From: an uncultured Planctomycetia bacterium
Lineage (GTDB): Bacteria; Omnitrophota; Gorgyraeia; Tantalellales; Tantalellaceae
Direction of reading: 5' to 3'
Length of the DNA stretch: 64,000 nucleotides
Assembly: GCA_964409365.1 (NCBI GenBank)
Contig: CAYPCX010000003.1
Span: 84,577-148,576, forward strand
The notes below the pieces were generated by a model. The model saw nothing but the letters and a program-made list of their open reading frames with translations. It was not told where the DNA came from and searched no databases. Numbering within the stretch: position 1 is the first letter of the stretch; each line of letters opens with the position of its first letter. The translations under genes were made by a program, and so were the position numbers. Positions 2,185-61,954 of this stretch are shown piece after piece.

Positions 2185-2197
2185 ATGGATGTATGAT

Positions 2198-2235
2198 GAA
2201 ACTTTTCCTGCGCGAAACTTGTCTAATATAGTGAG
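2198..2235 (+). promoter_or_regulatory. ECF (sigma-E-type) promoter GAAACTT-N16-GTCTAA-TATAGTGAG directly upstream of the ECF sigma gene (autoregulatory)
   Basis: -35 2198-2204, -10 2221-2226, ATG 2239. Confidence 0.6.
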
Positions 2236-2238
2236 ACC

Positions 2239-2796
2239 ATGATAAAAGCGATATCGAGAGAATTACTGGTGCGGGCCTCAGAAGGCGACATGGAAGCCTT
2301 CGAGGAGATATACAGGGCCTCTTCGGGTTATGTTTATACGGTCGCTTATGGGATAACGGCGAGCAGAGAGGACGCCGAAGAGGTGACCCAGGACGTCTTT
2401 GTAAAGATATACCGGAAACTCGGCGGTTTCGGTTTCAGGTCTTCGTTCAAGACCTGGATATACAGGATAACGGCGAATACCGCCATCAACCGGTACAGGA
2501 AAAAGGCCAAGAGGTTCCGCCGGGAGAGGCCCCTGGACGAGGTGCTATCCCGCGTGATCCCCGGGGAGAAAGGCGATGAAAAATTCGACGCCGATCACAA
2601 CAGGACGCTGGTCGATTCGATGCTGAAGAGCCTCCCGCCGGATCAGCGCGCCTGCGTGGTCCTCAGGGAGATCGAGGGCCTGAAGTACGAGGAAATAGCC
2701 CGGACCCTGGAAATAAAGATAAACACGGTAAAGACGCGGCTCAAGAGGGCGCGGAAAAAACTTATGACGATATACGGAAAAGGAGAAAAGCCATGA
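2239..2796 (+). CDS. ECF (sigma-70 family group IV, RpoE-like) sigma factor
   Basis: 185 aa; region-2 like FVKIYRKLGGF...WIYRITANTAINRYRK; region-4 HTH EIARTLEIKINTVKTRLKRARKKL. ATGA start/stop overlap with the downstream anti-sigma gene. Confidence 0.85.
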   Translation: MIKAISRELLVRASEGDMEAFEEIYRASSGYVYTVAYGITASREDAEEVTQDVFVKIYRKLGGFGFRSSFKTWIYRITANTAINRYRKKAKRFRRERPLDEVLSRVIPGEKGDEKFDADHNRTLVDSMLKSLPPDQRACVVLREIEGLKYEEIARTLEIKINTVKTRLKRARKKLMTIYGKGEKP

Positions 2797-3275
2797 GATG
2801 CTCTAAAATAAGAGAACTGGTCCTCACGGATTATACGGACGGGGAACTTAATGAACGCACGCGCGTAGAGGTCGAAGCCCACATGCGGACGTGCGAAAAT
2901 TGCCGGCGGTTCGAAGCCCGTCTTAAAAGCAGGGTCTCCGACCCCCTGAGAAAAGCGCAGCGGCTCGAACCCCCCGAATACCTGTGGTCGCGCATCAAAG
3001 GCGCGATAGAGGAAAGGGCCAAGGAAAACCCGCTCACCGCGCTGAAAGAACGGCTCGAGTCCGTTCTCGTCGTCAGAAGGCCGGCCCTGGCCCTGGCATC
3101 CCTTGCGGTTATCCTGATCGCGGCTGTCTTTTTCACCGGGACGTTCATAGAAAGATCCCGGCTTAACAGTTATATTGAAGAACAGGTCGATTTTTTGGAG
3201 ACACTTAACAACGGGAACGGCAACGGCTACACGTATGACGATATAGGCATCCCGATGGAAGATCTTTTCCTCTAG
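2793..3275 (+). CDS. Anti-sigma factor, zf-HC2 type (putative zinc finger) with single TM helix
   Basis: H-x3-C-x2-C motif HMRTCENC near N-terminus; TM helix PALALASLAVILIAAVFFTG. Translationally coupled to the ECF sigma gene. Confidence 0.7.
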   Translation: MRCSKIRELVLTDYTDGELNERTRVEVEAHMRTCENCRRFEARLKSRVSDPLRKAQRLEPPEYLWSRIKGAIEERAKENPLTALKERLESVLVVRRPALALASLAVILIAAVFFTGTFIERSRLNSYIEEQVDFLETLNNGNGNGYTYDDIGIPMEDLFL

Positions 3276-3277
3276 AG

Positions 3278-3315
3278 GGAACTTTTTCCGGAGCACCTTT
3301 GTCTAAGACAGTGAG
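3278..3315 (+). promoter_or_regulatory. ECF (sigma-E-type) promoter GGAACTT-N16-GTCTAA-GACAGTGAG upstream of CpxP-like gene
   Basis: -35 3278-3284, -10 3301-3306; begins 3 nt after anti-sigma stop. Confidence 0.6.
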
Positions 3316-3350: not shown

Positions 3351-3854
3351 ATGATGAAAATGACAATAAGGACATTTACGGCATGTTTGGTCGCGATAAC
3401 TCTCTTGACCGCGGCGCCGCTTGCTTTAGCGCAGCCCGCTCAGGGCAGCGGACCCGAGGGCGCGGGAGAATGCTCAAGGGGCGGCGCGCGCGCCGGATTC
3501 CTCGAACAGCTCGATCTCACCGACGAGCAGAAAGAACGGATGAAAGAGCAGCGCAAGGCGAACAGGGAGAAGATGAAAGAGCTCATGGGATCCCTCAGGA
3601 ACGAACGCAACGCCCTGCGGGACGAACTGAAAAAACCCGACGCCAGCATGGATTCGGTCGCGGGCACCGTCGCAAAGATGAAAACGGTGCAGTCAGAAAT
3701 GATCGACCAGAGAGTGAACGGTTTTCTCACGATGAAGGAGATCCTCACCCCCGAACAGTTCCAGAAACTCCTCGAACTGAAGGAACAGAGGAAACACCGC
3801 GGCGGCAAACGCCGCATGGAAAAAAAGCACCACATGCGAGGGGACTGGGACTGA
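3351..3854 (+). CDS. CpxP/Spy-family periplasmic LTXXQ-motif protein (envelope stress chaperone-like)
   Basis: Signal peptide MMKMTIRTFTACLVAITLLTAAPLALA; two LTxxQ motifs (LTDEQK, LTPEQF); helical K/E-rich repeats. SD GGAGGAG upstream. Confidence 0.7.
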   Translation: MMKMTIRTFTACLVAITLLTAAPLALAQPAQGSGPEGAGECSRGGARAGFLEQLDLTDEQKERMKEQRKANREKMKELMGSLRNERNALRDELKKPDASMDSVAGTVAKMKTVQSEMIDQRVNGFLTMKEILTPEQFQKLLELKEQRKHRGGKRRMEKKHHMRGDWD

Positions 3855-3884: not shown

Positions 3885-3923
3885 ATACATCGGGTGTATG
3901 ACCAGGTTATACACCCGATGTAT
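3885..3923. repeat. Palindrome copy 2 (same 15-nt arms, 9-nt loop)
   Basis: Between CpxP-like stop (3854) and next gene start (3951). Confidence 0.7.
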
Positions 3924-4473: not shown

Positions 4474-6540
4474 ATGGGAGATCTAAGAGAACTTGACCTC
4501 AAGAGCTGTTACTGGTATGACCGGGATGACATCCTTTTCGACCTCTATCTTCCCGCGCTATCGGCAGCATCCGCCTGCAGCAAGGTAACCGGCCCTTTAT
4601 CCTCCGAGACCCTTTCGGATCTCGCGAAGAACCTCCCTCAATTCGCCAGAAAAGGCGGACGCACTTTTCTTATCACCAGTATAGTCCTGCCCGGCGGGGG
4701 AACAGTCTCCGCGGAAGATATCGTGAAAAACACCGAGAACAGGGTCCTCAAAGAGATCGGCTATGTCAAGGACGAGGCAAAAAGGGACGGTATCGCGCTT
4801 CTGGGATGGATGCTGAAGACGGGCAACCTGCAGATAAAGATAGCCGTCGTTCCTGAGGGAGCGGAAGCGCCGGAGATAGGCATACTGGAAGATAATACAG
4901 GGAACCGCCTTTCCTTCGCGGGTTCCGGGAACTCGGCAGTGCATGCCTTCAGGAGCTGGGACGAGAGCGGAAAATACGTCGATGCTGATCTCGGTATCTT
5001 CGCGGGCCTCTGGAAATGCGAGGCAAAAAAGACAAAGGTCTATCCCGCGTCCGAGATGTTCACGAACGGCCTTATCCGGTTCGCCCCGGACGACGAGGCC
5101 GCATTCCTGCGCCTGGCACGGTCGATGTCCGAACGGCTGATGGGCCAGCGCAGGAAAAGCGTCGTAAAAAAAGATCTGAGAAAATACCAGGAAGAGGCCG
5201 TGAATGCCTGGCTGGATAGCGGCGCCAAAGGCATACTGGAAATGGCCCCGGCAACGGGCAAGACCTTCACGTCAGTCCATGCGATCGAGGCCCTGAGCAT
5301 TAAAACAGGGAAACTCCTGGCCGTTATAGTAGTACCTCACGAGTACCAGATCTCACTGTGGAAAAAGGAATTAACGGATTTTTTCGGTTATGATTTCGCG
5401 GTCAAAGAAGTTCGCGGGGATATGTCCCAATGGCCTGAGATCCTTGAAGAAAACATTAAGAAATACGCCTCGGGTGAAATGGACCGGCTGGCGATCCTTA
5501 CCATGTATAACACGTTTTCCACAAGCAGGTTCCAGGACCTTGCAGCCGGTCTTCCGGGCGGGGATCCCCAGACGCTGCTTGTCGCAGACGAGGTCCGTTT
5601 CATGAACTTCCCCGAGTTCAGAAGCGGCATGAAAGACACGTACAGGTACAGGCTGGGCCTGAGCGCCGTGCCGCGCGACTGGCTCGAAGACGCGGGGGAA
5701 GATACGCTAAAACAATATTTCGGCGGTACGGTTTACAGCTTTACTTTACAGGACGCTATCCCGGAATTCCTGAGCCCCTACAGCTATTTCCCGCAAACGG
5801 TCGAAATGGGACCCGCCGAGCTCAGCAGATACGCTGAAAAGGCGGGGGAGGATCTCGAGCGGCTATCAAGAGAAAGAGCAAGGGTCATTCTGGAAAACCC
5901 GGGGATACGTGCCGGGTTCGAAAGGATCATACAGGACCTTAAAGAAGAGGGTCAGGTAAACCATCTCCTGGTCTATTGCAGGCCGGAGCAGCTCGATTGG
6001 GTCACGGAAACGCTGAAAGGCAAGGACATCCCGTATCACCGCCTCGACCTGCGGGAATCCAGGGAAGAAAGACGCCTTATGCTCGAACGTTTTAAAAAAG
6101 GCTCTGTCGCGGCCCTTTGCGCCGCGCGCTGTCTCGACCAGGGACTTGAAATGCCGGCGGCGAAAACGGTCATCTTCCTGGCCGCCGATTCCAGCCCCGC
6201 GCAATACATCCAGAGGAGGGGAAAAGTGCTCCTCAAAGACGCGGATAAGGAACAAACGGACATCTATGATTTTATAGTTCTTCCCGCCGAAGGACAGACA
6301 TTGAACAGGATGCTGTACCTCGCCGAAAGGAAGCTTTTCGATAAGCAGCTTGCCCAGGCCCAGATTTTTTACGTGAACGCCAGGAACAGTTCCGACGTGA
6401 TGCCAAAGATGCGCCAGATCGCTTCCCGGTACGACCTCGAGCTTAAGGAAACATCTGCCCCTCCACGCAGGACCGCGCCCATGGCAAGGCTCGGGGGCCT
6501 GGGCCGGCAAAGCTACCTCAATTCACAGAACGGAAAATAA
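4474..6540 (+). CDS. Superfamily-2 DEAD/DEAH-box helicase (type III restriction Res-subunit-like) with ~240-aa uncharacterised N-terminal domain
   Basis: Walker A MAPATGKT (motif I); motif II VADEVR (DExx-type); helicase-C motifs QGLEMP (V) and QRRGKV (VI). N-terminal domain has a GSGNS stretch but no clear HxK. 688 aa. Confidence 0.75.
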   Translation: MGDLRELDLKSCYWYDRDDILFDLYLPALSAASACSKVTGPLSSETLSDLAKNLPQFARKGGRTFLITSIVLPGGGTVSAEDIVKNTENRVLKEIGYVKDEAKRDGIALLGWMLKTGNLQIKIAVVPEGAEAPEIGILEDNTGNRLSFAGSGNSAVHAFRSWDESGKYVDADLGIFAGLWKCEAKKTKVYPASEMFTNGLIRFAPDDEAAFLRLARSMSERLMGQRRKSVVKKDLRKYQEEAVNAWLDSGAKGILEMAPATGKTFTSVHAIEALSIKTGKLLAVIVVPHEYQISLWKKELTDFFGYDFAVKEVRGDMSQWPEILEENIKKYASGEMDRLAILTMYNTFSTSRFQDLAAGLPGGDPQTLLVADEVRFMNFPEFRSGMKDTYRYRLGLSAVPRDWLEDAGEDTLKQYFGGTVYSFTLQDAIPEFLSPYSYFPQTVEMGPAELSRYAEKAGEDLERLSRERARVILENPGIRAGFERIIQDLKEEGQVNHLLVYCRPEQLDWVTETLKGKDIPYHRLDLRESREERRLMLERFKKGSVAALCAARCLDQGLEMPAAKTVIFLAADSSPAQYIQRRGKVLLKDADKEQTDIYDFIVLPAEGQTLNRMLYLAERKLFDKQLAQAQIFYVNARNSSDVMPKMRQIASRYDLELKETSAPPRRTAPMARLGGLGRQSYLNSQNGK

Positions 6541-7652: not shown

Positions 7653-8244
7653 TAAAAAATACCGTTTTGATCCTCATCATGATCCTTTTGTCTCTTTCCG
7701 GGAACACTTCCGCTTCCGCGGAGAACTGGGAAGAATTCGCGAGATGGCACCAGGACCACGCGCCGTCCAGGTCCAAGAGACGGACACAGTCCGGCAGACG
7801 GCTCTTACGGGAAAAAACGGAAAGGATAATGCAGATAGACGTCCAGGCGCGGACCGTCCTCCAGAACGGCGACTACGCGCGCGCCGAAGAACTTTACAAG
7901 GAAGCCCTGGGCCTTACTATCGAAACATACGGCCTGGAAGATATCCGTGTCGCGAAAGCTTTACAATGCTGGGGATCATCTACATGGAGGCAGGTAACCC
8001 CGCCGAGGCGGAAGACGTCTTTACATGGGCTCAGCGCATAGGCGAGCGAACTGTAGGAGGCGACAGCCCCCAGATCATGAACATCTACAGGTTCCTGGCC
8101 GCGGCTTATTACCAGCAGGGCAAATACGAGGCGGCTTCCGCTTCCGCCGGCAAGCTTCTGGAAATAGCTATAGACGCGTACGGCCCCCGCAGCCCCCAGG
8201 CCCGCGAAGCCAAGGGCTTCCTGAAAAAAATAACGATCAAATAG
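7649..8244 (+). pseudogene. Secreted TPR-repeat (kinesin-light-chain-type) protein split by an apparent 1-nt frameshift near 7962
   Basis: N-terminal part with signal peptide is in ORF 7568..8041 (true start MIKNTVLIL at 7649, ATGA overlap with upstream stop). TPR continuation TMLGIIYMEAGNPAEAEDVF... is in ORF 7744..8244, shifted by one base at ...VAKAL|TMLG. Confidence 0.45.
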
Positions 8245-9091: not shown

Positions 9092-9652
9092 ATGGACCAC
9101 TGGATCAGGAAATGCGGTATATTCATTCTGGCCGTGCTCGTATACGCGGCGATCTCCGGCTGCGCCAGCACCAAGGCGCATTACGGGTACAAGGTCGACG
9201 GCCAGCAATACGCCTCCTTCAAAGAGCTCGATGACGAGCAATCCCTCAAAATGGTGGTCATGCTTTATAACGTCCCGACGGAAACATATGAGGACAAAAC
9301 AGCCAAGAACATCACTATCACCAAATACATGGAACTTCTCCAAAAGCGGAAGTCCGACTATATCGCCGGTTCCGGCGTATTTGACCTGCAATACGAAAAG
9401 ATAGATCTCAAGGTCTGGCCGGAAGACGACCTCATAAGCGTTTACCGGGCCCTGGCCGAAAAACCGGGAGTGTACGATCATCAAACGACACACGAACTTT
9501 CCGAGAACGACAACGCCACAAAGATCGTCAGGCTTACCGGCATGGAAGAGATCGTCAGGGAGCTCCGCAACAGGCAGAACACCAGACAGGCCTGGAGCAT
9601 CCTCGCGCAGGTCCTGACGATCGCCCTCAATGTGGCGCTCGCCGCTATCTGA
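9092..9652 (+). CDS. Lipoprotein, paralog B of the 7026-7652 family
   Basis: Internal Met MDHWIRKCGIFILAVLVYAAISGC (lipobox) within ORF 8981..9652. Conserved blocks KNITITKY, GSGVFDLQYEKIDLKVWPEDDL, YRAL, IVRLT; C-terminal TM. Confidence 0.5.
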   Translation: MDHWIRKCGIFILAVLVYAAISGCASTKAHYGYKVDGQQYASFKELDDEQSLKMVVMLYNVPTETYEDKTAKNITITKYMELLQKRKSDYIAGSGVFDLQYEKIDLKVWPEDDLISVYRALAEKPGVYDHQTTHELSENDNATKIVRLTGMEEIVRELRNRQNTRQAWSILAQVLTIALNVALAAI

Positions 9653-9654
9653 CC

Positions 9655-10875
9655 TTACTGTTTTATCTCGCCGGCTTTCTTGAGGGCTCTTTTGATGAAG
9701 AGGGGGCCCAGGAATTCGTTGATGACCGTCGCGGCCACGACGGTGCTTACGAGGAAATTGGAGAATTTGGAAAAGACGGGATCCTGCTCCATGATGAGCG
9801 CCAGGCCCACGACGATCCCTCCGTAAGGGATAAGGCCGCCTATCGTATACTTCTTTACGTTCGGCGAGGCATTTGCCAGCGACGCGCCCACGGCCGTGCC
9901 TCCCCATTTGCCGAGCATCCTGAACACGACGAAAAAAAGCACCAGGAGAAAAGTCGAAGCCAGCACCTTGAGGTCAAGCTGCATCCCGCTCAGCGCGAAG
10001 AACACCAGGAAGATCAATTCCTCCGAATACCTTTCCAGCATCTTGAATATCTTCTCACGGTGGTGGCTGAAATTCGTCACGAATATCCCCATCACCATGA
10101 CCGAGAGGACCTCCTCGACGTGCGCCAGGGTAGCAAGCCCCCAGCAAACGGTTACAAAACTGATAATAAGCACGAACATGATGCCCTCGGTATCACGCAT
10201 AAGGCGCCTGGCGATAAGGTTGAAGATGAACCCCATCGCGCAGCCCAGTACCACAGACCCTGAGATTATGAAACAGGGCACCACGAAAGCGTTGAAAACG
10301 CTGAAATCCTGGTGGGAGACAAGCACTTTCGCTATTACGACCGCGATACTGAAGTTCACTATCCCGAGCACGTCGTCGAACGCGGCGACACCCAGCATGG
10401 TGGACGACACCTCGCCCCGCGCGTTGTACTCATGGGTGACCGCCAGGGCCGCGGAGGGGTCCGTAGGGGACCCGAGGCACCCGAGTATAAGCCCGGCCGG
10501 TATCCACACCCCCAGGTACGTGGCGTTCGGTACGTGCGCGAAAAAGGGGAGCACGGCGACGAACCCCAGCGCGATCGCCAGAAACGCCACTTCGGCCTCA
10601 AAAAAAGTGATGAGAAGCAGACTCCTGCCCATCTTTTTTACTTTCGCGAATTCGATCGTGCCGCCGATGATGAAAGCTATGAAAGCGATAGAGATGATCT
10701 CTATCACGTTGGTCTTGGCGATGATGCTTTTGGGCACGAACGTGCATATTTGCGGGTTAAGCAGGACACCCGCCAGAAGATAACCGAGGATCTTGGGCAT
10801 CTTCAACCGCTGGAATTCCTGTCCCAGGACGAAAGCGAAGAAAAGTATTATGCCCGTTATAAGTATAGCGCTCAC
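9655..10875 (-). CDS. Monovalent cation:proton antiporter (Na+/H+ exchanger, CPA-type)
   Basis: 406 aa, ~12 TM segments; N-terminal ILGYLLAGVLLNP pattern typical of Na_H_Exchanger family. Confidence 0.75.
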   Translation of the reverse strand: MSAILITGIILFFAFVLGQEFQRLKMPKILGYLLAGVLLNPQICTFVPKSIIAKTNVIEIISIAFIAFIIGGTIEFAKVKKMGRSLLLITFFEAEVAFLAIALGFVAVLPFFAHVPNATYLGVWIPAGLILGCLGSPTDPSAALAVTHEYNARGEVSSTMLGVAAFDDVLGIVNFSIAVVIAKVLVSHQDFSVFNAFVVPCFIISGSVVLGCAMGFIFNLIARRLMRDTEGIMFVLIISFVTVCWGLATLAHVEEVLSVMVMGIFVTNFSHHREKIFKMLERYSEELIFLVFFALSGMQLDLKVLASTFLLVLFFVVFRMLGKWGGTAVGASLANASPNVKKYTIGGLIPYGGIVVGLALIMEQDPVFSKFSNFLVSTVVAATVINEFLGPLFIKRALKKAGEIKQ

Positions 10876-52934: not shown

Positions 52935-52972
52935 GGAACTTTTTCGCCTCCCGTACTGTCTAAGACAGTAGA
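52935..52972 (+). promoter_or_regulatory. ECF (sigma-E-type) promoter GGAACTT-N16-GTCTAA-GACAGTAGA upstream of glycine-zipper lipoprotein gene
   Basis: -35 52935-52941, -10 52958-52963; gene start 52986/52989. Confidence 0.55.
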
Positions 52973-52985
52973 AGGGAGGAGGTGC

Positions 52986-53426
52986 GTGATGAAAAAGTTG
53001 ACCATGATCGTGCTCATTCTGGCGTTCAGCATGACCTTAGTACTGCCGTGCCCGGCCCAGGAAGACTCTGCTATAGCGATCATAAAAGCGGGCCTTTTGG
53101 GGGCAGGCGCGGGGGCTATCGGCGGGGCGGCTTCCGGAGCCAAGGGAAGGGACATCTGGAAAGGGGCCCTCGCGGGGGCCGGGACCAATATCATAGGGGG
53201 AGCCCTTCTGGACACGATTACCCGCAGTAGCACCACCACGCAGACCCAACGGTACTATGTGCAGCCTCAGCGCGCGGCGTATTCCCAGCCGGTAACGTAT
53301 TCTCAGCCTTCGTACACCGCGCACAGCACCCCCGGTGAGAGCTTCGATGATTACTTCCAGCGGGGGTACTACCTGGGGTACAAGGAAGGGTATGAGCAGG
53401 GATTCCGTGACGGCATGCGGCAGTGA
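52986..53426 (+). CDS. Glycine-zipper (Gly-zipper/YMGG-like) outer-membrane lipoprotein-like protein
   Basis: Signal peptide with Cys; GLLGAGAGAIGGAASGAKG...GALAGAGTNIIGGALL glycine zipper; Q/Y/S-rich tail. Confidence 0.6.
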   Translation: MMKKLTMIVLILAFSMTLVLPCPAQEDSAIAIIKAGLLGAGAGAIGGAASGAKGRDIWKGALAGAGTNIIGGALLDTITRSSTTTQTQRYYVQPQRAAYSQPVTYSQPSYTAHSTPGESFDDYFQRGYYLGYKEGYEQGFRDGMRQ

Positions 53427-57309: not shown

Positions 57310-58767
57310 ATGTCGGCAAAAATATCGCAAAATATTAACAGTTTTTTCACGAAACAGCTGATCAATTTTTTGCCTTTCTTTTTAAAAAGGGCGTCCAAGA
57401 AGAACCTTATAAGTATGTTCGAACTTGCGGCCAAATTCGCCCACACTGAAGAGGACAAAAAAGACATATCCGGAACTATCTGGCGATTGAAGAACAATTA
57501 CGGGACCCTGGATTTTTTCAAACGCCTTATTGATGAACTAAATCCGCGATGCATGAAAAAGTTTTTCGAGAACGCGCATCTGGTCCATCACGATATCAGC
57601 AAAATAGGCCTGGAATTCCGGGAAAGGGAAGGTTTCCGCGGTCCCGATGTCCTGGTGCTCGATGTCACGGCCAGATGTAATTTGCGATGTAAGGGATGCT
57701 GGGCCGGGGAGTATGATAAGAAGGCCGAAGATCTCGATATGAAGCTGATCGAAAAAGCACTGGATGAGGCAAGATACAAAATAGGGCTTAACCATATCGC
57801 CGTAACAGGGGGAGAACCTCTTATAAGAGAAAACCTTTTTGACATCTTTGAGAAATACTCCGATTGCCAATTCATACTCTATACCAATGGGACGCTTTTA
57901 ACGGACGAGAAGATAAAGAAAATAGCCGAATTAGGGAACGTTTATGTGCTTTTAAGCATTGAAGGCAATGAGGAATATACTGACGCGAGAAGGGGGGAAG
58001 GCGTATATAAAAAGGTCATTAACGCCATGGAGAGGTTGAAGAAAGCCGGTGTCATATTCGGCTTTTCAAGCTGTCCTACCCGCGAAAATATCGAATACCT
58101 GGCCAGTGACGAGTTCGTCGATACCATGCTTGAAAAAGGCTGCCATTACGGTTTCTATTTCCAGTATGTTCCGGTCGGAAGGGATCCCGATCCTGAATTA
58201 ATGCCCACGCCCGAGCAAAGGAATGCCGTAAGGTATAGTCTTTACAGGCACAGGAACACAAAACCGATACTTTTGATCGATTTCTGGAATGACGGCCCTG
58301 AGGTCAACGGTTGCATGGCCGGTGGCAGGAAATACCTTCATATAACGAATAACGGTGACATTGAACCCTGTGTTTTTGTCCATTTTGCCGTAGGTAACAT
58401 CAAGGATATGAGCATAACAGATGCGCTTAAGTCGTCTTTTTTCACTGAGATAAGGAACAATATTCCCTATGACGGCAATCTTTTAAGGCCATGTATGATA
58501 ATCGACAGGCCTTACGTCCTAAGAGGCCTGGTCGAAAAACATAAAGCTTACGCTTCCGACAGGGATGCGGAACTTTTGTTCACCAAGTGCAAGGATGCGC
58601 TTGATAATTATTCCAAAGAATTAAGCGAAGTATTGGACAAGGAATGGGAGGCGGGAAAATGGATGTGTTTCTACCCGTCACCGGAGAGGCCCGAGATAAT
58701 AGGCCTTGATAAAGACAAAGCCGATGTCACGGCCTCGCATGGAACCCGATCTCCCGTTTCCGCTTAG
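57310..58767 (+). CDS. Radical SAM enzyme with SPASM/twitch-like C-terminal domain and ~110-aa N-terminal extension (RRE-like)
   Basis: Cx3Cx2C CNLRCKGC; GGEPL glycine-rich SAM motif; C-terminal NGCMAGG...ITNNGDIEPCVF...RPCM Cys cluster. Confidence 0.8.
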   Translation: MSAKISQNINSFFTKQLINFLPFFLKRASKKNLISMFELAAKFAHTEEDKKDISGTIWRLKNNYGTLDFFKRLIDELNPRCMKKFFENAHLVHHDISKIGLEFREREGFRGPDVLVLDVTARCNLRCKGCWAGEYDKKAEDLDMKLIEKALDEARYKIGLNHIAVTGGEPLIRENLFDIFEKYSDCQFILYTNGTLLTDEKIKKIAELGNVYVLLSIEGNEEYTDARRGEGVYKKVINAMERLKKAGVIFGFSSCPTRENIEYLASDEFVDTMLEKGCHYGFYFQYVPVGRDPDPELMPTPEQRNAVRYSLYRHRNTKPILLIDFWNDGPEVNGCMAGGRKYLHITNNGDIEPCVFVHFAVGNIKDMSITDALKSSFFTEIRNNIPYDGNLLRPCMIIDRPYVLRGLVEKHKAYASDRDAELLFTKCKDALDNYSKELSEVLDKEWEAGKWMCFYPSPERPEIIGLDKDKADVTASHGTRSPVSA

Positions 58768-59269
58768 CCGGGGGCGGTTCCATTAGCTTTCTGATGGCTT
58801 CAAAGATCGCACAGATCTCCCCGTCATGTTTTTCAACTTTTCGTTCCAACTCGGCTAATTTATGCATTAGCTCCTTATGCGTGACGACCATTTCTTTGAG
58901 TTTCACAAAAACTCGCATAATAGCAATGTTTACCTGCGCTGCCCGTTCGCTGTTCAATACGCTGGAAAGCATCAAGATCCCATGCTCGGTGAATGTATAA
59001 GGTAGATACCGTCTGCCTCCTCGTTTTGAGGTTTCAAATTGAAACCTCAAACTTTCGCTTTCCGCTCTATTCAGTTGGAACATGAAGTCCTTTGGAAAAC
59101 GATTTTTATTGCGCCTTACAGCCAGATTTAAAGATTTCGTGGGTACTCCATAAAGGATCGCCAGATCTTTGTCCAGCATCACTTTCTTGCCCCTGATCAG
59201 CAGTATTTTACCCGCGATGGTCTTCTGCGAAATCAGTCCTGTCATAACCGTTTTCTTCCGTTTCCCCAT
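58727..59269 (-). CDS. ORF6N-domain (KilA-N-like, phage antirepressor-type DNA-binding) protein, copy 1
   Basis: RNKNRFPKDFMFQL, RGGRRYLPYTFTEHGILMLSSVLNSERA; C-terminal coiled coil + EPPPAKRKR. 41-nt convergent overlap with the radical-SAM gene. Confidence 0.75.
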   Translation of the reverse strand: MGKRKKTVMTGLISQKTIAGKILLIRGKKVMLDKDLAILYGVPTKSLNLAVRRNKNRFPKDFMFQLNRAESESLRFQFETSKRGGRRYLPYTFTEHGILMLSSVLNSERAAQVNIAIMRVFVKLKEMVVTHKELMHKLAELERKVEKHDGEICAIFEAIRKLMEPPPAKRKREIGFHARP

Positions 59270-59312
59270 AAAACCTCCCTATCCTCAAATTTAATACTGT
59301 GGATTCCATACC

Positions 59313-59352
59313 CTCACAATATTAGACACATTTCCCGCCCAAATTCTTTCAC
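59313..59352 (-). promoter_or_regulatory. Variant copy of the conserved ECF-type promoter motif (TGAAAGAATTT-N-GTCTAATATTGTGAG) upstream of ORF6N copy 1
   Basis: Same spacing and 15-nt -10/start block as the ECF sigma gene promoter at 2198-2235. Confidence 0.45.
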
Positions 59353-59462
59353 TTTTTTTTGAATTATCCAGGTATATGCTTGCCATAAGAACGCCTTAGA
59401 CTTATAATTTGTACTCAAGGCCTGTTAATAGGGCAGGGCACAAAACGTAAAGGGAACACATA

Positions 59463-60119
59463 ATGCTGAAGAAAAAGGCTGAAGCGATAATCAGGGATAT
59501 CGGCAGGGCCGACCGGGTATTCACGATCAACAGGAATAAAGCCGCTTTTATAGTCGTCGATATGCAGAACTTCGTCTGTAAACCCAAGAAAAGCCCCAAA
59601 AAGATGATCGGCATTAAAAAGGTCGTCACCAATATCAACAGGATCGCCGACCTGTGCCGCCGGACGAACATACCCGTAATATGGATAAGGCAGAATTTCA
59701 CCATGAAAAAGGGCAAAAGCGACGGCGGCCTGTACGATAAATTCCACAAAACGCCTTTATCCCGCGAGATAACGAACCGAAGGCCCGGCACGGAGATCTA
59801 CAAAGAGCTCCATTTCGACGGGAAAAAGGACCACGTCGTGTTCAAGAACAGGTACAGCGCTTTCGAGAGCAAAATATCAAAACTGGATAATTTGCTGAAG
59901 AAGCTCGGGAAGAAACAGCTGATCTTCGCCGGTGCCGCCGTGAACGTATGCGTTGAAAGCACCATCCGTGACGCCATGCAGAAAGGGTATGAAGCCACGC
60001 TGGTCTCCGACGCGACCACGACTTTCGACAAGGCGCTTTTGGAAGCCAGCCTGTTCAATATTAAAATATACTTCGGCGACGTCCTGGACACGGCCGGCGT
60101 CTTAAAAGAACTGGCATAA
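59463..60119 (+). CDS. Isochorismatase-family cysteine hydrolase
   Basis: AFIVVDMQNFV (Asp), K, NVCVESTIRDA (Cys) triad pattern. Confidence 0.8.
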   Translation: MLKKKAEAIIRDIGRADRVFTINRNKAAFIVVDMQNFVCKPKKSPKKMIGIKKVVTNINRIADLCRRTNIPVIWIRQNFTMKKGKSDGGLYDKFHKTPLSREITNRRPGTEIYKELHFDGKKDHVVFKNRYSAFESKISKLDNLLKKLGKKQLIFAGAAVNVCVESTIRDAMQKGYEATLVSDATTTFDKALLEASLFNIKIYFGDVLDTAGVLKELA

Positions 60120-60131
60120 AAAAGGAACCCC

Positions 60132-60911
60132 ATGAAAACACATCTTTTTTATTTTTCCGCTACCGGCAACTCATTGAAGATCGCCAATGACCTGGCAAAA
60201 GAGCTCGGAGAGACCCGGGTCTTTTCTATCCCAAAGGTCATACATGAAACCCCCGATCTATCGGCCGAGCGTATAGGCATTGTCTTTCCCATGTACTACG
60301 GGGGGATCCCCAATATCGTCAAAAGGTTTATTGGTACGATCACCCCTGAGCCGGGGAAATACCTGTTCGCCGTCACCAGCGGAAGAGACGAAAATTCCCC
60401 CATGGGCGCCCTGGACCTGGCCCGGAAACTCTTCAGGAAAAAAGGCCTGGATCTATCGGCCGGTTTCTTCGTCCGGATGCCGGGAAATTATCTTCTCATG
60501 TACGATATCATATCGAAAGAAGAGCAGGAAGACCGGCTCAAGGAAGAAGAGGCCAGGGTCAGGGAGATCGCGGGAAAGATCACCGCCGGCGAGCGCTCCA
60601 TCGAAAAAGGCTCCTTTCTGGCGAACTGGCTGCTTTCCGGGGTAATGCACGGCATCGCCTCCTCAAGATTCGCGACGGCGGACAAATACCTCCGGGTAGA
60701 CGAGAAATGTACGCATTGCGGTACGTGCGAAAAGGTGTGCCCTGTCCGTAATATCAGGCTGCGGGACGGGGTCCCGACCTGGCTGCATCACTGCGAACAC
60801 TGCCTGGCGTGCCTGCACTGGTGTCCGGCCGGTGCGATCCAATGCGGGAAGAACACGGCGGGCCGTACCCGCTACAGAAATCCCCGGATAACGCTCGAGG
60901 ATCTCACATGA
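60132..60911 (+). CDS. Flavodoxin-like domain fused to 4Fe-4S dicluster ferredoxin (EFR1-type iron-sulfur flavoprotein)
   Basis: FYFSATGNSLKIA flavodoxin start; CTHCGTCEKVCP and CEHCLACLHWCP ferredoxin motifs. Confidence 0.7.
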   Translation: MKTHLFYFSATGNSLKIANDLAKELGETRVFSIPKVIHETPDLSAERIGIVFPMYYGGIPNIVKRFIGTITPEPGKYLFAVTSGRDENSPMGALDLARKLFRKKGLDLSAGFFVRMPGNYLLMYDIISKEEQEDRLKEEEARVREIAGKITAGERSIEKGSFLANWLLSGVMHGIASSRFATADKYLRVDEKCTHCGTCEKVCPVRNIRLRDGVPTWLHHCEHCLACLHWCPAGAIQCGKNTAGRTRYRNPRITLEDLT

Positions 60912-61318
60912 AAATAATAATAGACACCAACCTGTTAGTGGCCTGTATGTTCAATAAAAGCAGCGCTTCCGCCCGGATCATACGCCAGGCCGAAGAGGGC
61001 GCTGTCGATGTGATGTGGCATCAAAAGACCCGGAACGAAGCGCGATTCATTGTAGACCAGATCCAGAGGGCGGTCCCGAAAGTGAAGATCGACCTGGACA
61101 AGGTGTTCAGGGAACAGAACGAAGTGAAAGATATGCCAAGAATTGAAGATGCTTCCGAAGACCCTGAAGACAATAAGTTCCTGGCATGCGCCGTAGCGGC
61201 CGGGGCCGATATGATCGTTTCGAACGACGCGCACCTCCGGAAGCTTAAAAAGTTTCAAGGTATTCCCATTTATACCTCTCGCCGGGCCCTGGAGATCATA
61301 AAAAAGGAACACGCGTGA
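60908..61318 (+). CDS. PIN-domain protein (TIGR00305-like putative toxin), orphan
   Basis: MKIIIDTNLLVA (Asp), LACAVAAGADMIVSNDAHL; ATGA overlap with upstream gene; ORF-track N-extension is read-through. Confidence 0.7.
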   Translation: MKIIIDTNLLVACMFNKSSASARIIRQAEEGAVDVMWHQKTRNEARFIVDQIQRAVPKVKIDLDKVFREQNEVKDMPRIEDASEDPEDNKFLACAVAAGADMIVSNDAHLRKLKKFQGIPIYTSRRALEIIKKEHA

Positions 61319-61347
61319 CGGAACACAAAGATGTCTCTATCACCCCT

Positions 61348-61881
61348 TCACATGAAACCCGATCCCCGTTTCTTTTTAGCCGGAGGCGGTTCCATTAGCT
61401 TCCTGATAGCGTCGAAAACGATCTTAAATTGTCCGTCATATTTCTTTTCCAAAGTTTCAATTTTTCTCCTTAGACTTTCATACGTCATGATCATTCTCCG
61501 CATACTCACAAATACCCGCATGATCTGAATATTCGCCTTAATTGCCCTTTTGCTGTTCAATACACTCGATAGCATTGCGACCCCTTGCTCGGTAAACACG
61601 CAAGGCAAGTATCTCCGTCCGCCCCAACTTGAGGTCACAAATTGTGACCTCAAGATTGTAACTTCTTTATTTGTAATGATAAACATAAAATCCCCAGGAA
61701 AGCGATCACGATTTCTCTTTACTGCTTGCAATAAAACCTTTGTTTGAACATCATAGAGTTCCGCCAAATCCCTATCTAGCATTACGTTATACCCCCGGAT
61801 CCGATATATCTTGGTCTTAATGTCCTCCAGCGAAACCCTTTTTCCCATGCTTTTCCCCCTTCTTGATATCTTCCTTTTCAT
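61348..61881 (-). CDS. ORF6N-domain protein, copy 2 (paralog of 58727-59269)
   Basis: RNRDRFPGDFMFII, WGGRRYLPCVFTEQGVAMLSSVLNSKRA, FDAIRKLMEPPPAKKKR. Confidence 0.75.
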   Translation of the reverse strand: MKRKISRRGKSMGKRVSLEDIKTKIYRIRGYNVMLDRDLAELYDVQTKVLLQAVKRNRDRFPGDFMFIITNKEVTILRSQFVTSSWGGRRYLPCVFTEQGVAMLSSVLNSKRAIKANIQIMRVFVSMRRMIMTYESLRRKIETLEKKYDGQFKIVFDAIRKLMEPPPAKKKRGSGFM

Positions 61882-61886
61882 GAACC

Positions 61887-61926
61887 CTCACTATATTAGA
61901 CACATCTCCCGCCCAAATTCTTTCAA
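61887..61926 (-). promoter_or_regulatory. Variant copy of the conserved ECF-type promoter motif (TGAAAGAATTT-N-GTCTAATATAGTGAG) upstream of ORF6N copy 2
   Basis: -10/start block GTCTAATATAGTGAG identical over 15 nt to the ECF sigma promoter; 5 nt then ATG. Confidence 0.45.
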
Positions 61927-61954
61927 TTTTTTCGTTTTTTTAGTAAAATAACAA

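Follow-up and report, generated by a model that had tools for sequence, protein, structure and literature searches.

A predicted alternative-sigma promoter class upstream of ORF6N genes in Omnitrophota, distinct from the RpoE-like class of the same genome

Promoters of the RpoE type (GGAACTT-N16-GTCTAA/TCAAA) are read by extracytoplasmic function (ECF) sigma factors; in the -35 of promoters of the RpoE/SigW type, no feature is more critical than AAC. ECF sigma factors are usually autoregulated and have group-specific promoter motifs (PMC7826278). Here we analyse a 64-kb stretch (the window) of contig CAYPCX010000003.1 from an uncultured bacterium of the Omnitrophota, which contains an RpoE-like ECF sigma gene (sigma1) and two genes encoding ORF6N-domain proteins (copies 1 and 2). 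The block upstream of each ORF6N gene resembles RpoE-type promoters in having two boxes ~16 nt apart, a -10 box that contains GTC and high conservation between sites, and an initial annotation had described these blocks as variants of the promoter of the sigma1 gene in which the -35 alone had diverged. Our comparisons identify them as instances of a distinct, predicted alternative-sigma promoter class that is widespread in Omnitrophota; below, the promoters of the sigma1 type are called class I and those of the ORF6N type class II.

Two promoter classes with a common -10/start region

Allowing up to two mismatches, we found four matches of the 15-mer GTCTAATATAGTGAG across the window (Table 1), with 0.03 expected by chance and none of 100 shuffles reaching four. 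In three out of three sites, 24 nt separate the T of TGAAA from the G of GTCTAA (2197 to 2221 for sigma1, 61925 to 61901 and 59351 to 59327 for the ORF6N genes). The initial annotation is borne out in these respects: both ORF6N genes carry a variant of the sigma gene promoter block, the spacing is identical and the 15-nt block is exact in copy 2 with one mismatch in copy 1. Its gene identities hold as well, as both ORF6N genes have full-length matches to PF10543 (112.3 and 114.6 bits, against a gathering cutoff of 27.8; E-values 1.4e-32 for copy 1 and 2.6e-33 for copy 2) and the sigma gene matches Sigma70_r2 and r4_2. Together, the blocks upstream of the ORF6N genes make up a direct repeat of 49 nt (59310-59358 and 61884-61932, 94% identity) and are found 47 and 52 nt 5' of the called ORF6N starts; the pattern TGAAAGAA-N16-GTCTAA occurs in the window at these two sites only (0.00 expected). 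We regard the blocks as a real, non-chance element that is putatively promoter-like and has ECF geometry (a -35 box, 16 nt and GTCTAA).

When the window sites are aligned, sigma1 and ORF6N promoters are alike only in G(G/A)AA, in their spacing and in TGTCTAA.A.(A/T)GTGAG, and the spacers and flanks are unrelated. The -35 box is GGAACTTTT or TGAAACTTTT at the sigma1, LTXXQ and 52935 sites; both ORF6N sites lack the G(G/A)AAC and T-tract of class I and read TGAAAGAATTT after an A-tract. The -10 of class I (TGTCTAA, 16 nt from the 7-nt -35 box) is present and identical in both. To compare the two classes, 13 class I and 14 class II sites were aligned and each was scored with leave-one-out position weight matrices (PWMs). 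The -35 boxes of class I sites score +10 to +19 bits with their own matrix and -14 to +5 with that of class II; those of class II sites score +14 to +20 with their own and -10 to +1 with that of class I. ORF6N copy 1 scores +14.4 bits as class II versus 0.0 as class I, and copy 2 +19.1 versus +0.7. On the other hand, the -10/start regions of the window ORF6N sites score +22 to +25 bits under either matrix, and the scores of the classes overlap. No intermediates between the two -35 types are found among ~40 sites: the -35 separates the classes completely, the -10/start not at all. The PWM comparison, which the initial annotation had proposed, places the ORF6N -35 in a second class, and the idea that this box is merely a diverged one is not tenable, as it is itself conserved across Omnitrophota (~0 bits as class I, +14 to +19 as class II).

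Class I has the architecture GGAACTTTT-N15-TGTCTAA (consensus agGgAACTTTTt-N11-tTGTCTAAtatagTgAgagg) and is found with sigma1, LTXXQ and small envelope-protein genes. Class II (consensus atTTGAAAGAAaaT-N10-aTGTGTCTaATatag.gagag) consists of an A/T tract, a -35 box TTGAAAGAA(A/T)(A/T)T (TTGAAAGAAwwT), ~13 nt, (T)GTCT(A/T)ATATAG and a purine-rich start/Shine-Dalgarno region. Its ~13-nt spacer differs between loci, usually with a G5 or C5 run, and its sites are co-oriented with the downstream gene, roughly 15-110 nt from the start codon. Both ORF6N sites of the window show this architecture, the co-orientation and the nearness to a start codon.

The box TTGAAAGAA(A/T)(A/T)T recurs with non-conserved spacers before unrelated genes in at least six other Omnitrophota lineages (public loci are referred to by L numbers). 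Many of these genes belong to, or lie near, the operon of another ECF-like sigma factor (sigma2, see below): class II sites precede the anti-sigma2 gene, spoVG and a RayT-like gene in L005 (the last an IS200/RayT-like gene with the ORF6N-type block TTTGAAAGAAATTG..TGTGTCTAATATAGTGAGG); the anti-sigma2 gene, spoVG, two Y1_Tnp genes and a 23S_rRNA_IVP gene in L116/L117; the sigma2 gene and spoVG in L119; the same two, a Y1_Tnp gene and Phd/YefM in L121; a Y1_Tnp gene and spoVG in L122; and spoVG in L127/L128, where toxin-antitoxin genes follow GTCAC variants. A class II-like block (GTGAAAGAAAA..CGTCTAATATAGTGAGGG, 1056-1094) is also found ~100 nt upstream of spoVG in L003, from a metagenome-assembled genome (MAG) labelled Planctomycetia; either the promoter class reaches beyond Omnitrophota or the bin is mislabelled. 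L003 also has a distant sigma2-like gene (27% identity; 5848-6363), 4.4 kb from the block.

Class II is likewise found at other ORF6N genes. The public contig that contains the window (L018) has two further copies just past the window end, one before a third ORF6N gene (GTCTTATATAGTGAGG) and the other, with a different spacer, before a HigB/Gp49-HTH toxin-antitoxin pair (GTCTAATACAGTGAAGG). In a second lineage (L020, L022 and L106-L108) four ORF6N genes each follow TGCAAGAATTTTGG..AAAAAGTTGTCTATAAG, which is of class II type (TGCAAGAATTTTG..GTTGTCTATAAG), and the ORF6N gene of L123 has the class II-type block TTGCAATAATTTG..CGTCTTATAG. The region upstream of the ORF6N gene of L125 resembles class II only loosely, matches neither class clearly and was left out of the count. 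The class I promoter type is not that of ORF6N genes in other genomes: in two other Omnitrophota lineages these have the class II-type -35 boxes TGCAAGAATTTT and TTGCAATAATTT, and AAC is never present.

The nearest named homologues of the window ORF6N proteins are from Omnitrophota, as are all those of sigma1, and the window hence derives almost certainly from this phylum. The ORF6N homologues in 80 IMG/VR viral loci have no class II block upstream, nor do those in a type I restriction-modification operon of Nitrospirae, and a scan of viral contigs with the full promoter pattern gave zero matches. Because these viral and Nitrospirae homologues lack the block, the putative class II promoter is best seen as a trait of the host lineage that is not carried with the ORF6N gene family.

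Class I was followed with a pattern scan (GRAAS-N18-GTCTAATATWGTGAG, one genome per species), which matched four MAGs of Omnitrophota and one labelled Planctomycetia; its matches in Aminobacter, Bacillales and Bacteroidota are unrelated or due to chance. Three out of the four Omnitrophota matches (L006, L009 and L011) are GGAACTTTT blocks before a sigma1 orthologue, and metagenome matches add a sigma1 orthologue (L017) and a signal-peptide gene (L013). Including L108, six lineages have class I at their sigma1 operon (window, L006, L009, L011, L017 and L108). In L108 the sigma1/anti-sigma/LTXXQ operon and a Gly-zipper gene have the promoters GAAACTTTTT..TGTCTAATTATATGAGGG, GGGAACTTTTT..TGTCTAATTGAAC and GGGAACTTTCTT..TGTCTAATTAAGTAGAG. 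The second lineage therefore reproduces the two-class split, as its sigma1, LTXXQ and Gly-zipper genes keep class I (GGAACTTT..TGTCTAATT) beside the class II ORF6N genes; the exact 15-mer is not common to its two classes, which share only TGTCTA and a similar start region.

From these alignments the 15-mer is a near-consensus -10/start of both classes, and the promoters of sigma1 and of ORF6N copy 2 are identical over 15 nt because both sit near this shared consensus, not because one was copied from the other. The 15-mer is thus essentially a generic motif, the outcome that the initial annotation had named as speaking against its own proposal.

Candidate sigma factors and alternative explanations

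Sigma1 bears the hallmarks of the ECF sigma factors: regions 2 and 4 alone, an anti-sigma factor encoded alongside it and a promoter of its own group type, and all its named homologues are from Omnitrophota. Its region 4.2 helix (INTVKTRLKRARKKL) is, we presume, of the arginine-rich type that reads GGAAC. Sigma2 was found in L005 as an ECF-like sigma factor of 205 aa, in an operon with a zf-HC2 anti-sigma factor and SpoVG that has one class II block before the anti-sigma gene and one before spoVG. It has more than 100 homologues at 52-78% identity, all named ones from Omnitrophota, and further sigma2 loci share the gene order sigma2, anti-sigma, SpoVG, hypothetical, MurA-family, MreB, MreC, (MreD), PBP2 and RodA. 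Class II sites are found in or before the sigma2 operon in six lineages (L005, L116, L119, L121, L122 and L127/L128), where their other neighbours are RayT-like, toxin-antitoxin and 23S_rRNA_IVP genes. The most consistent position is before spoVG (all sigma2 loci examined, and L003); the anti-sigma2 gene is preceded by class II in L005 and L116 and by a degenerate site in L122. The region 4.2 helix is near-invariant within each family, INTV[KR][TS]RL[KN]RAR in sigma1 and [IV]N[TS]VSTIIAR[KRE]K in sigma2, and these differing recognition helices would fit the differing -35 boxes.

Since class I is located at the sigma1 operon and class II at the sigma2 operon, the helices differ and autoregulation is usual for ECF sigma factors, we propose sigma2 as the reader of class II and the ORF6N genes as members of its regulon. 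We consider this the best explanation as a whole and give it somewhat better than even chances; judging from gene linkage, the ORF6N genes are probably driven by sigma2 and not by sigma1. The initial annotation had offered regulon membership as one of two readings: membership as such is plausible, but probably under another sigma factor than the envelope-stress factor sigma1. According to this model, class II promoters would be read by a sigma factor that is conserved in Omnitrophota and encoded in the SpoVG-MurA-MreBCD-PBP2-RodA cluster, and its release from a membrane anti-sigma factor would switch on ORF6N genes, toxin-antitoxin pairs and RayT-like transposases. Envelope stress acting through sigma1 would not be the switch for the ORF6N genes. 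Transcription is expected to start ~6-8 nt after GTCTAA, within AGTGAG.

Several observations weigh against this model. Of six sigma2 genes, only two (L119 and L121) have class II directly before them, and its steadiest positions are at spoVG and at the anti-sigma gene; sigma2 is thus linked to class II by neighbourhood and not by classic autoregulation. The two sigma factors share only 19-26% identity and differ in region 2 as well, so that a common -10 specificity is not predicted from their sequences. The start regions of classes I and II are alike within a species (AGTGAG in the window genome and AAGTAGAG in the second lineage), which could reflect one shared reader for both classes. Several sigma1-gene promoters were found by searching with the 15-mer, and the identity of their -10 regions is an effect of that search; the L108 sigma1 site, which was found independently of it, differs (GTCTAATTATATGAG). 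Finally, tblastn gave no match to sigma2 in the window and L018 (20 kb of the source contig), and the best sigma2 candidate (P0155) derives from other samples and so is not placed in this genome. A general explanation for the same -10/start preference in two sigma factors is nevertheless conceivable, as GTC in the -10, AT-rich DNA that melts easily, transcripts starting with a purine and a Shine-Dalgarno sequence near the 5' end may be favoured by both.

The first alternative is that sigma1 reads both classes through the shared -10 TGTCTAAT, which would make the ORF6N genes part of the sigma1 regulon and the A-tract plus TTGAAAGAA a weak or alternative -35, an UP-like element or an activator site. 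The common geometry, the identical or nearly identical -10/start and the start regions that are alike across classes within a species are all consistent with it, and some sigma1-gene promoters start with TTTGAAAC, which overlaps TTTGAAAG in its 5' half (+5 bits on the class II -35 matrix). However, AAC is present in every class I site and in no class II site, the ~40 sites include zero intermediates, and class II clusters at the sigma2 operon and has never been seen at the sigma1 operon, with class I showing the reverse. We therefore consider a sigma1 regulon unlikely.

It is still less probable that the block, instead of being a promoter, is a dispersed repeat that serves in recombination, binds a protein such as ORF6N or represents a miniature mobile element. 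The three ORF6N paralogues of the window genome are ~95% identical over 48-49 nt including the spacer, with coding bodies at 55-60%, paralogues share species-specific spacer sequences, and the block accompanies accessory or selfish genes (toxin-antitoxin, RayT and ORF6N), all of which a repeat would explain. But the block has a two-box architecture with spacers that vary across genes and species, all copies are co-oriented with the gene at a fixed orientation near the downstream start codon, and it is also found before core genes (spoVG and the sigma2 gene) at syntenic positions. Apart from the direct repeat of 49 nt, the blocks show neither terminal inverted repeats nor target duplications.

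The other reading of the initial annotation, that a mobile-looking island of low GC content captured the promoter of the sigma1 gene, whose -35 then drifted, fared worse. The 15-mer is exactly identical in the sigma1 promoter and that of ORF6N copy 2, and the ORF6N genes do lie in DNA of lower GC content (57-60 kb, 0.44-0.46; 61-62 kb, 0.45; elsewhere, ~0.55), so that part of the description stands. Capture itself is very improbable: the likeness to the sigma1 promoter is limited to consensus positions with unrelated spacer and flanks, the supposedly drifted -35 is the one that is conserved elsewhere, both in other lineages and upstream of other genes, and the second lineage keeps the two-class pattern though its ORF6N and sigma1 promoters differ in the 15-mer. 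The ORF6N genes are not flanked by an integrase or transposase gene.

We give hardly any credence to class II being the ordinary housekeeping sigma70-type promoter of Omnitrophota. TTGAAA is close to TTGACA, and TAATAT or TATAGT to TATAAT, but the best hexamers are 22-25 nt apart, outside the sigma70 range (16-18 nt), a sigma70 scan is empty at the blocks, and there are only two class II sites in 64 kb. Because canonical TTGACA-N17-TATACT/TATAAT promoters coexist with class II at the same loci, sometimes directly 3' of the class II block, class II is not the housekeeping type. We rejected a T3/T7-like phage promoter on the opposite strand (reverse complement ACCCTCACTATA), as the neighbourhood lacks a phage RNA polymerase gene, just ~10 nt are matched and the sigma1 copy would then point at the 3' end of the upstream gene.

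Other features of the ORF6N and sigma loci

Coordinates of the window features are collected in Table 1. The initial annotation had counted five copies of the motif, and the fifth is probably the third class I promoter, whose downstream open reading frame (ORF) has no Pfam match. ORF6N copy 2 has an alternative in-frame ATG at 61881, which would give a protein of 177 aa.

Table 1. Positions of genes, promoters, 15-mer copies and palindromes in the window
Feature	Position	Strand	Description
ORF6N copy 1	58727..59269	-	180 aa; gene call also in L018/L019
ORF6N copy 2	61348..61848	-	166 aa as publicly called; identical protein P0001 on public contigs
Class II promoter, ORF6N copy 1	59310..59360	-	A-tract; -35 GTGAAAGAATTT 59352-59341; -10/start TGTCTAATATTGTGAGG 59328-59312
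Class II promoter, ORF6N copy 2	61884..61941	-	A-tract 61941-61927; -35 TTGAAAGAATTT 61926-61915; GGGCGGG in spacer; -10/start TGTCTAATATAGTGAGG 61902-61886
Class I promoter, sigma1 gene	2197..2235	+	TGAAACTTTT-N14-TGTCTAATATAGTGAG; ends 3 nt before ATG
Class I promoter, LTXXQ gene	3278..3315	+	GGGAACTTTTT-N14-TGTCTAAGACAGTGAG
Third class I promoter	52935..52972	+	GGGGAACTTTTT-N14-CTGTCTAAGACAGTAGAAGG; 5' of ORF 52986-53426
15-mer GTCTAATATAGTGAG	2221-2235	+	exact; ends 3 nt before ATG of sigma1
15-mer copy	3301-3315	+	2 mismatches; 5' of LTXXQ/Metal_resist gene
15-mer copy	59313-59327	-	1 mismatch; 5' of ORF6N copy 1
15-mer GTCTAATATAGTGAG	61887-61901	-	exact; 5' of ORF6N copy 2
Sigma1, RpoE-like ECF sigma factor	2239..2796	+	Pfam Sigma70_r2, r4_2, Sigma70_ECF
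Sigma1 anti-sigma factor, zf-HC2	2793..3275	+	Pfam PF13490, E 7e-10
LTXXQ/Metal_resist (CpxP/Spy-like) periplasmic protein gene	3351..3854	+	Pfam PF13801, PF07813; class I target
Perfect palindrome in ORF6N copy 1	59025..59051	-	TTTGAGGTTTCAA(A/T)TTGAAACCTCAAA; at LRFQFETS motif
Perfect palindrome in ORF6N copy 2	61628..61654	-	CTTGAGGTCACAATTTGTGACCTCAAG; at LRSQFVTS motif

Both ORF6N coding sequences of the window contain a perfect palindrome, and the differences between the arms of copies 1 and 2 compensate each other. Palindromes with arms of 12-15 bp are located at the L-R-x-Q-[FI]-x-T-S motif (e.g. TTGAGGTCACAATTTGTGACCTCAA; palindrome GAGGTCACAATTTGTGACCTC) and are also found in the ORF6N genes of L018 (~2648), L020, L106, L110, L123, L028, L068 and L076. 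The arms covary (TCACAA/TTGTGA, TGCCAA/TTGGCA, TCGCAA/TTGCGA and TTTCAA/TTGAAA), and therefore the residues are coupled in the pairs S-V, C-G, S-A and F-E: among 77 homologues with the motif, C goes with G in six out of six, and the only partners of S are V (62) and A (5). This palindrome is also found just upstream of ORF6N genes in the Nitrospirae type I restriction-modification operon (L110-L115, where three tandem ORF6N genes are located between hsdM and hsdS) and in some viral loci. This pattern suggests selection at the DNA or RNA level, which might act on, e.g., an operator for ORF6N dimers, a hairpin in the mRNA or a site of recombination.

In DNA sequence, the three ORF6N paralogues share 85-90% identity over their last 50-70 nt, versus 55-60% in the gene bodies (58753-58804 and 61365-61416 in the window, and copy 3 in L018), and this similarity runs on past a 1-nt deletion that frameshifts the C-terminal tail of copy 2. 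With conserved 5' and 3' ends and a diverged middle, the paralogues look like products of gene conversion or cassette-like exchange.

At the sigma1 operon, the ATG lies only 2-10 nt past the 15-mer in the orthologues that carry it (2235-2241 in the window; L006, L009, L011, L017 and L108), which implies a leaderless mRNA or one with a very short leader. The start of sigma1 is publicly called at Met18 (168 aa, P0241), and the N-termini of the orthologues favour ATG 2239 (185 aa). Another 15-mer, ATACACCCGATGTAT, forms an inverted pair on both sides of the sigma1/anti-sigma/LTXXQ operon (2153-2183 and 3885-3923, with a partial copy at 1960-1974); it has five matches in the window, with 0.02 expected, and could be a terminator-like hairpin or an element like the repetitive extragenic palindromes (REP). 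At sigma2 loci that lack class II directly before the sigma2 gene, a conserved segment TCCTGACTG(C/T)GGGGCTATGGAG is found ~40-70 nt 5' of the sigma2 start (L005, ~2925-2960; L116, L122 and L128, upstream of the sigma2 gene), and may be a conserved leader or regulatory element.

The RayT/IS200-like (Y1_Tnp) genes with class II sites are flanked by lineage-specific REP-like palindromes (CAAGACCAGGTCTTG, GTTCAAGGCTTAGCCTTGAAC and CCCACCGCGGCGGTGGG; L005 ~7830-7930, L116 ~9800-10000, L122 ~9150-9230 and L123 8850-9610), and together they look like REP/RayT units in Omnitrophota. Toxin-antitoxin modules have tandem promoters, a class II site followed within ~30-60 nt by a canonical TTGACA-N17-TATAAT/TATACT promoter (L018 1263-1372; L121 upstream of 7393; L128 upstream of 1835, 2437, 3210 and 5422). 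In L128 the class II -10 is GTGTCACATATAG, which replaces GTGTCTAATATAG.

Relation to known systems

Our literature searches found no description of Omnitrophota promoters, sigma regulons or sigma2. Omnitrophota are uncultivated, and two sharp promoter classes would make their regulons readable from MAGs. If the sigma2 model is true, multi-copy ORF6N genes, toxin-antitoxin modules and RayT transposases are wired into one host circuit. We entertain, as a tentative extension to which we give slightly less than even chances, that the sigma2 regulon marked by class II consists of spoVG plus largely selfish or defence-type genes (multi-copy ORF6N, toxin-antitoxin and RayT) that adopted a host promoter, which would couple their expression to a cell-envelope or growth signal, and that the sigma1 and sigma2 circuits may cross-talk through the common -10/start. 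A common -10 block alone does not place a gene in the regulon of a neighbouring sigma factor, and a tempting mis-assignment is corrected here.

Sigma1 and class I are a standard RpoE-like ECF module, and sigma1 fits such modules fully: a zf-HC2 anti-sigma gene follows it, its LTXXQ target is periplasmic and the sigma1 gene is itself preceded by a class I promoter. The class II promoter is of ECF style and has a new -35: unlike RpoE-type promoters, the ORF6N promoters lack the AAC plus T-tract -35 and have TTGAAAGAAwwT, with an A/T tract upstream and a spacer that holds a G/C run. Among phages and mobile elements, ORF6N/KilA-N/Rha-like DNA-binding proteins (PF10543) are the family that the window genes match over their full length. 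There are thousands of ORF6N homologues, of 165-180 aa and often in several copies per genome; the viral and Nitrospirae members differ from those of the window in lacking the class II block.

In Bacillus subtilis, the spoVG promoter is dependent on SigH, whose -35 is RWAGGAWWW and whose -10 is GAAT. spoVG is also the steadiest class II target, and the class II -35 AAAGAAAAT is reminiscent of the SigH -35, a tentative lead. However, sigma2 is ECF-like, has two domains and is paired with a zf-HC2 anti-sigma factor, class II has GTCT.ATATAG as its -10 and the spacing differs. The nearest analogy is with the SigW, SigM and SigX factors of B. subtilis, which have partly overlapping regulons in which the -35 is common (TGAAAC-like) and the -10 (CGTA/CGTC/CGAC) discriminates. 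In both that system and the Omnitrophota classes one box is common and the other differs, but in Omnitrophota it is the -10/start that is shared and the -35 that discriminates, and sigma1 and sigma2 are just 19-26% identical.

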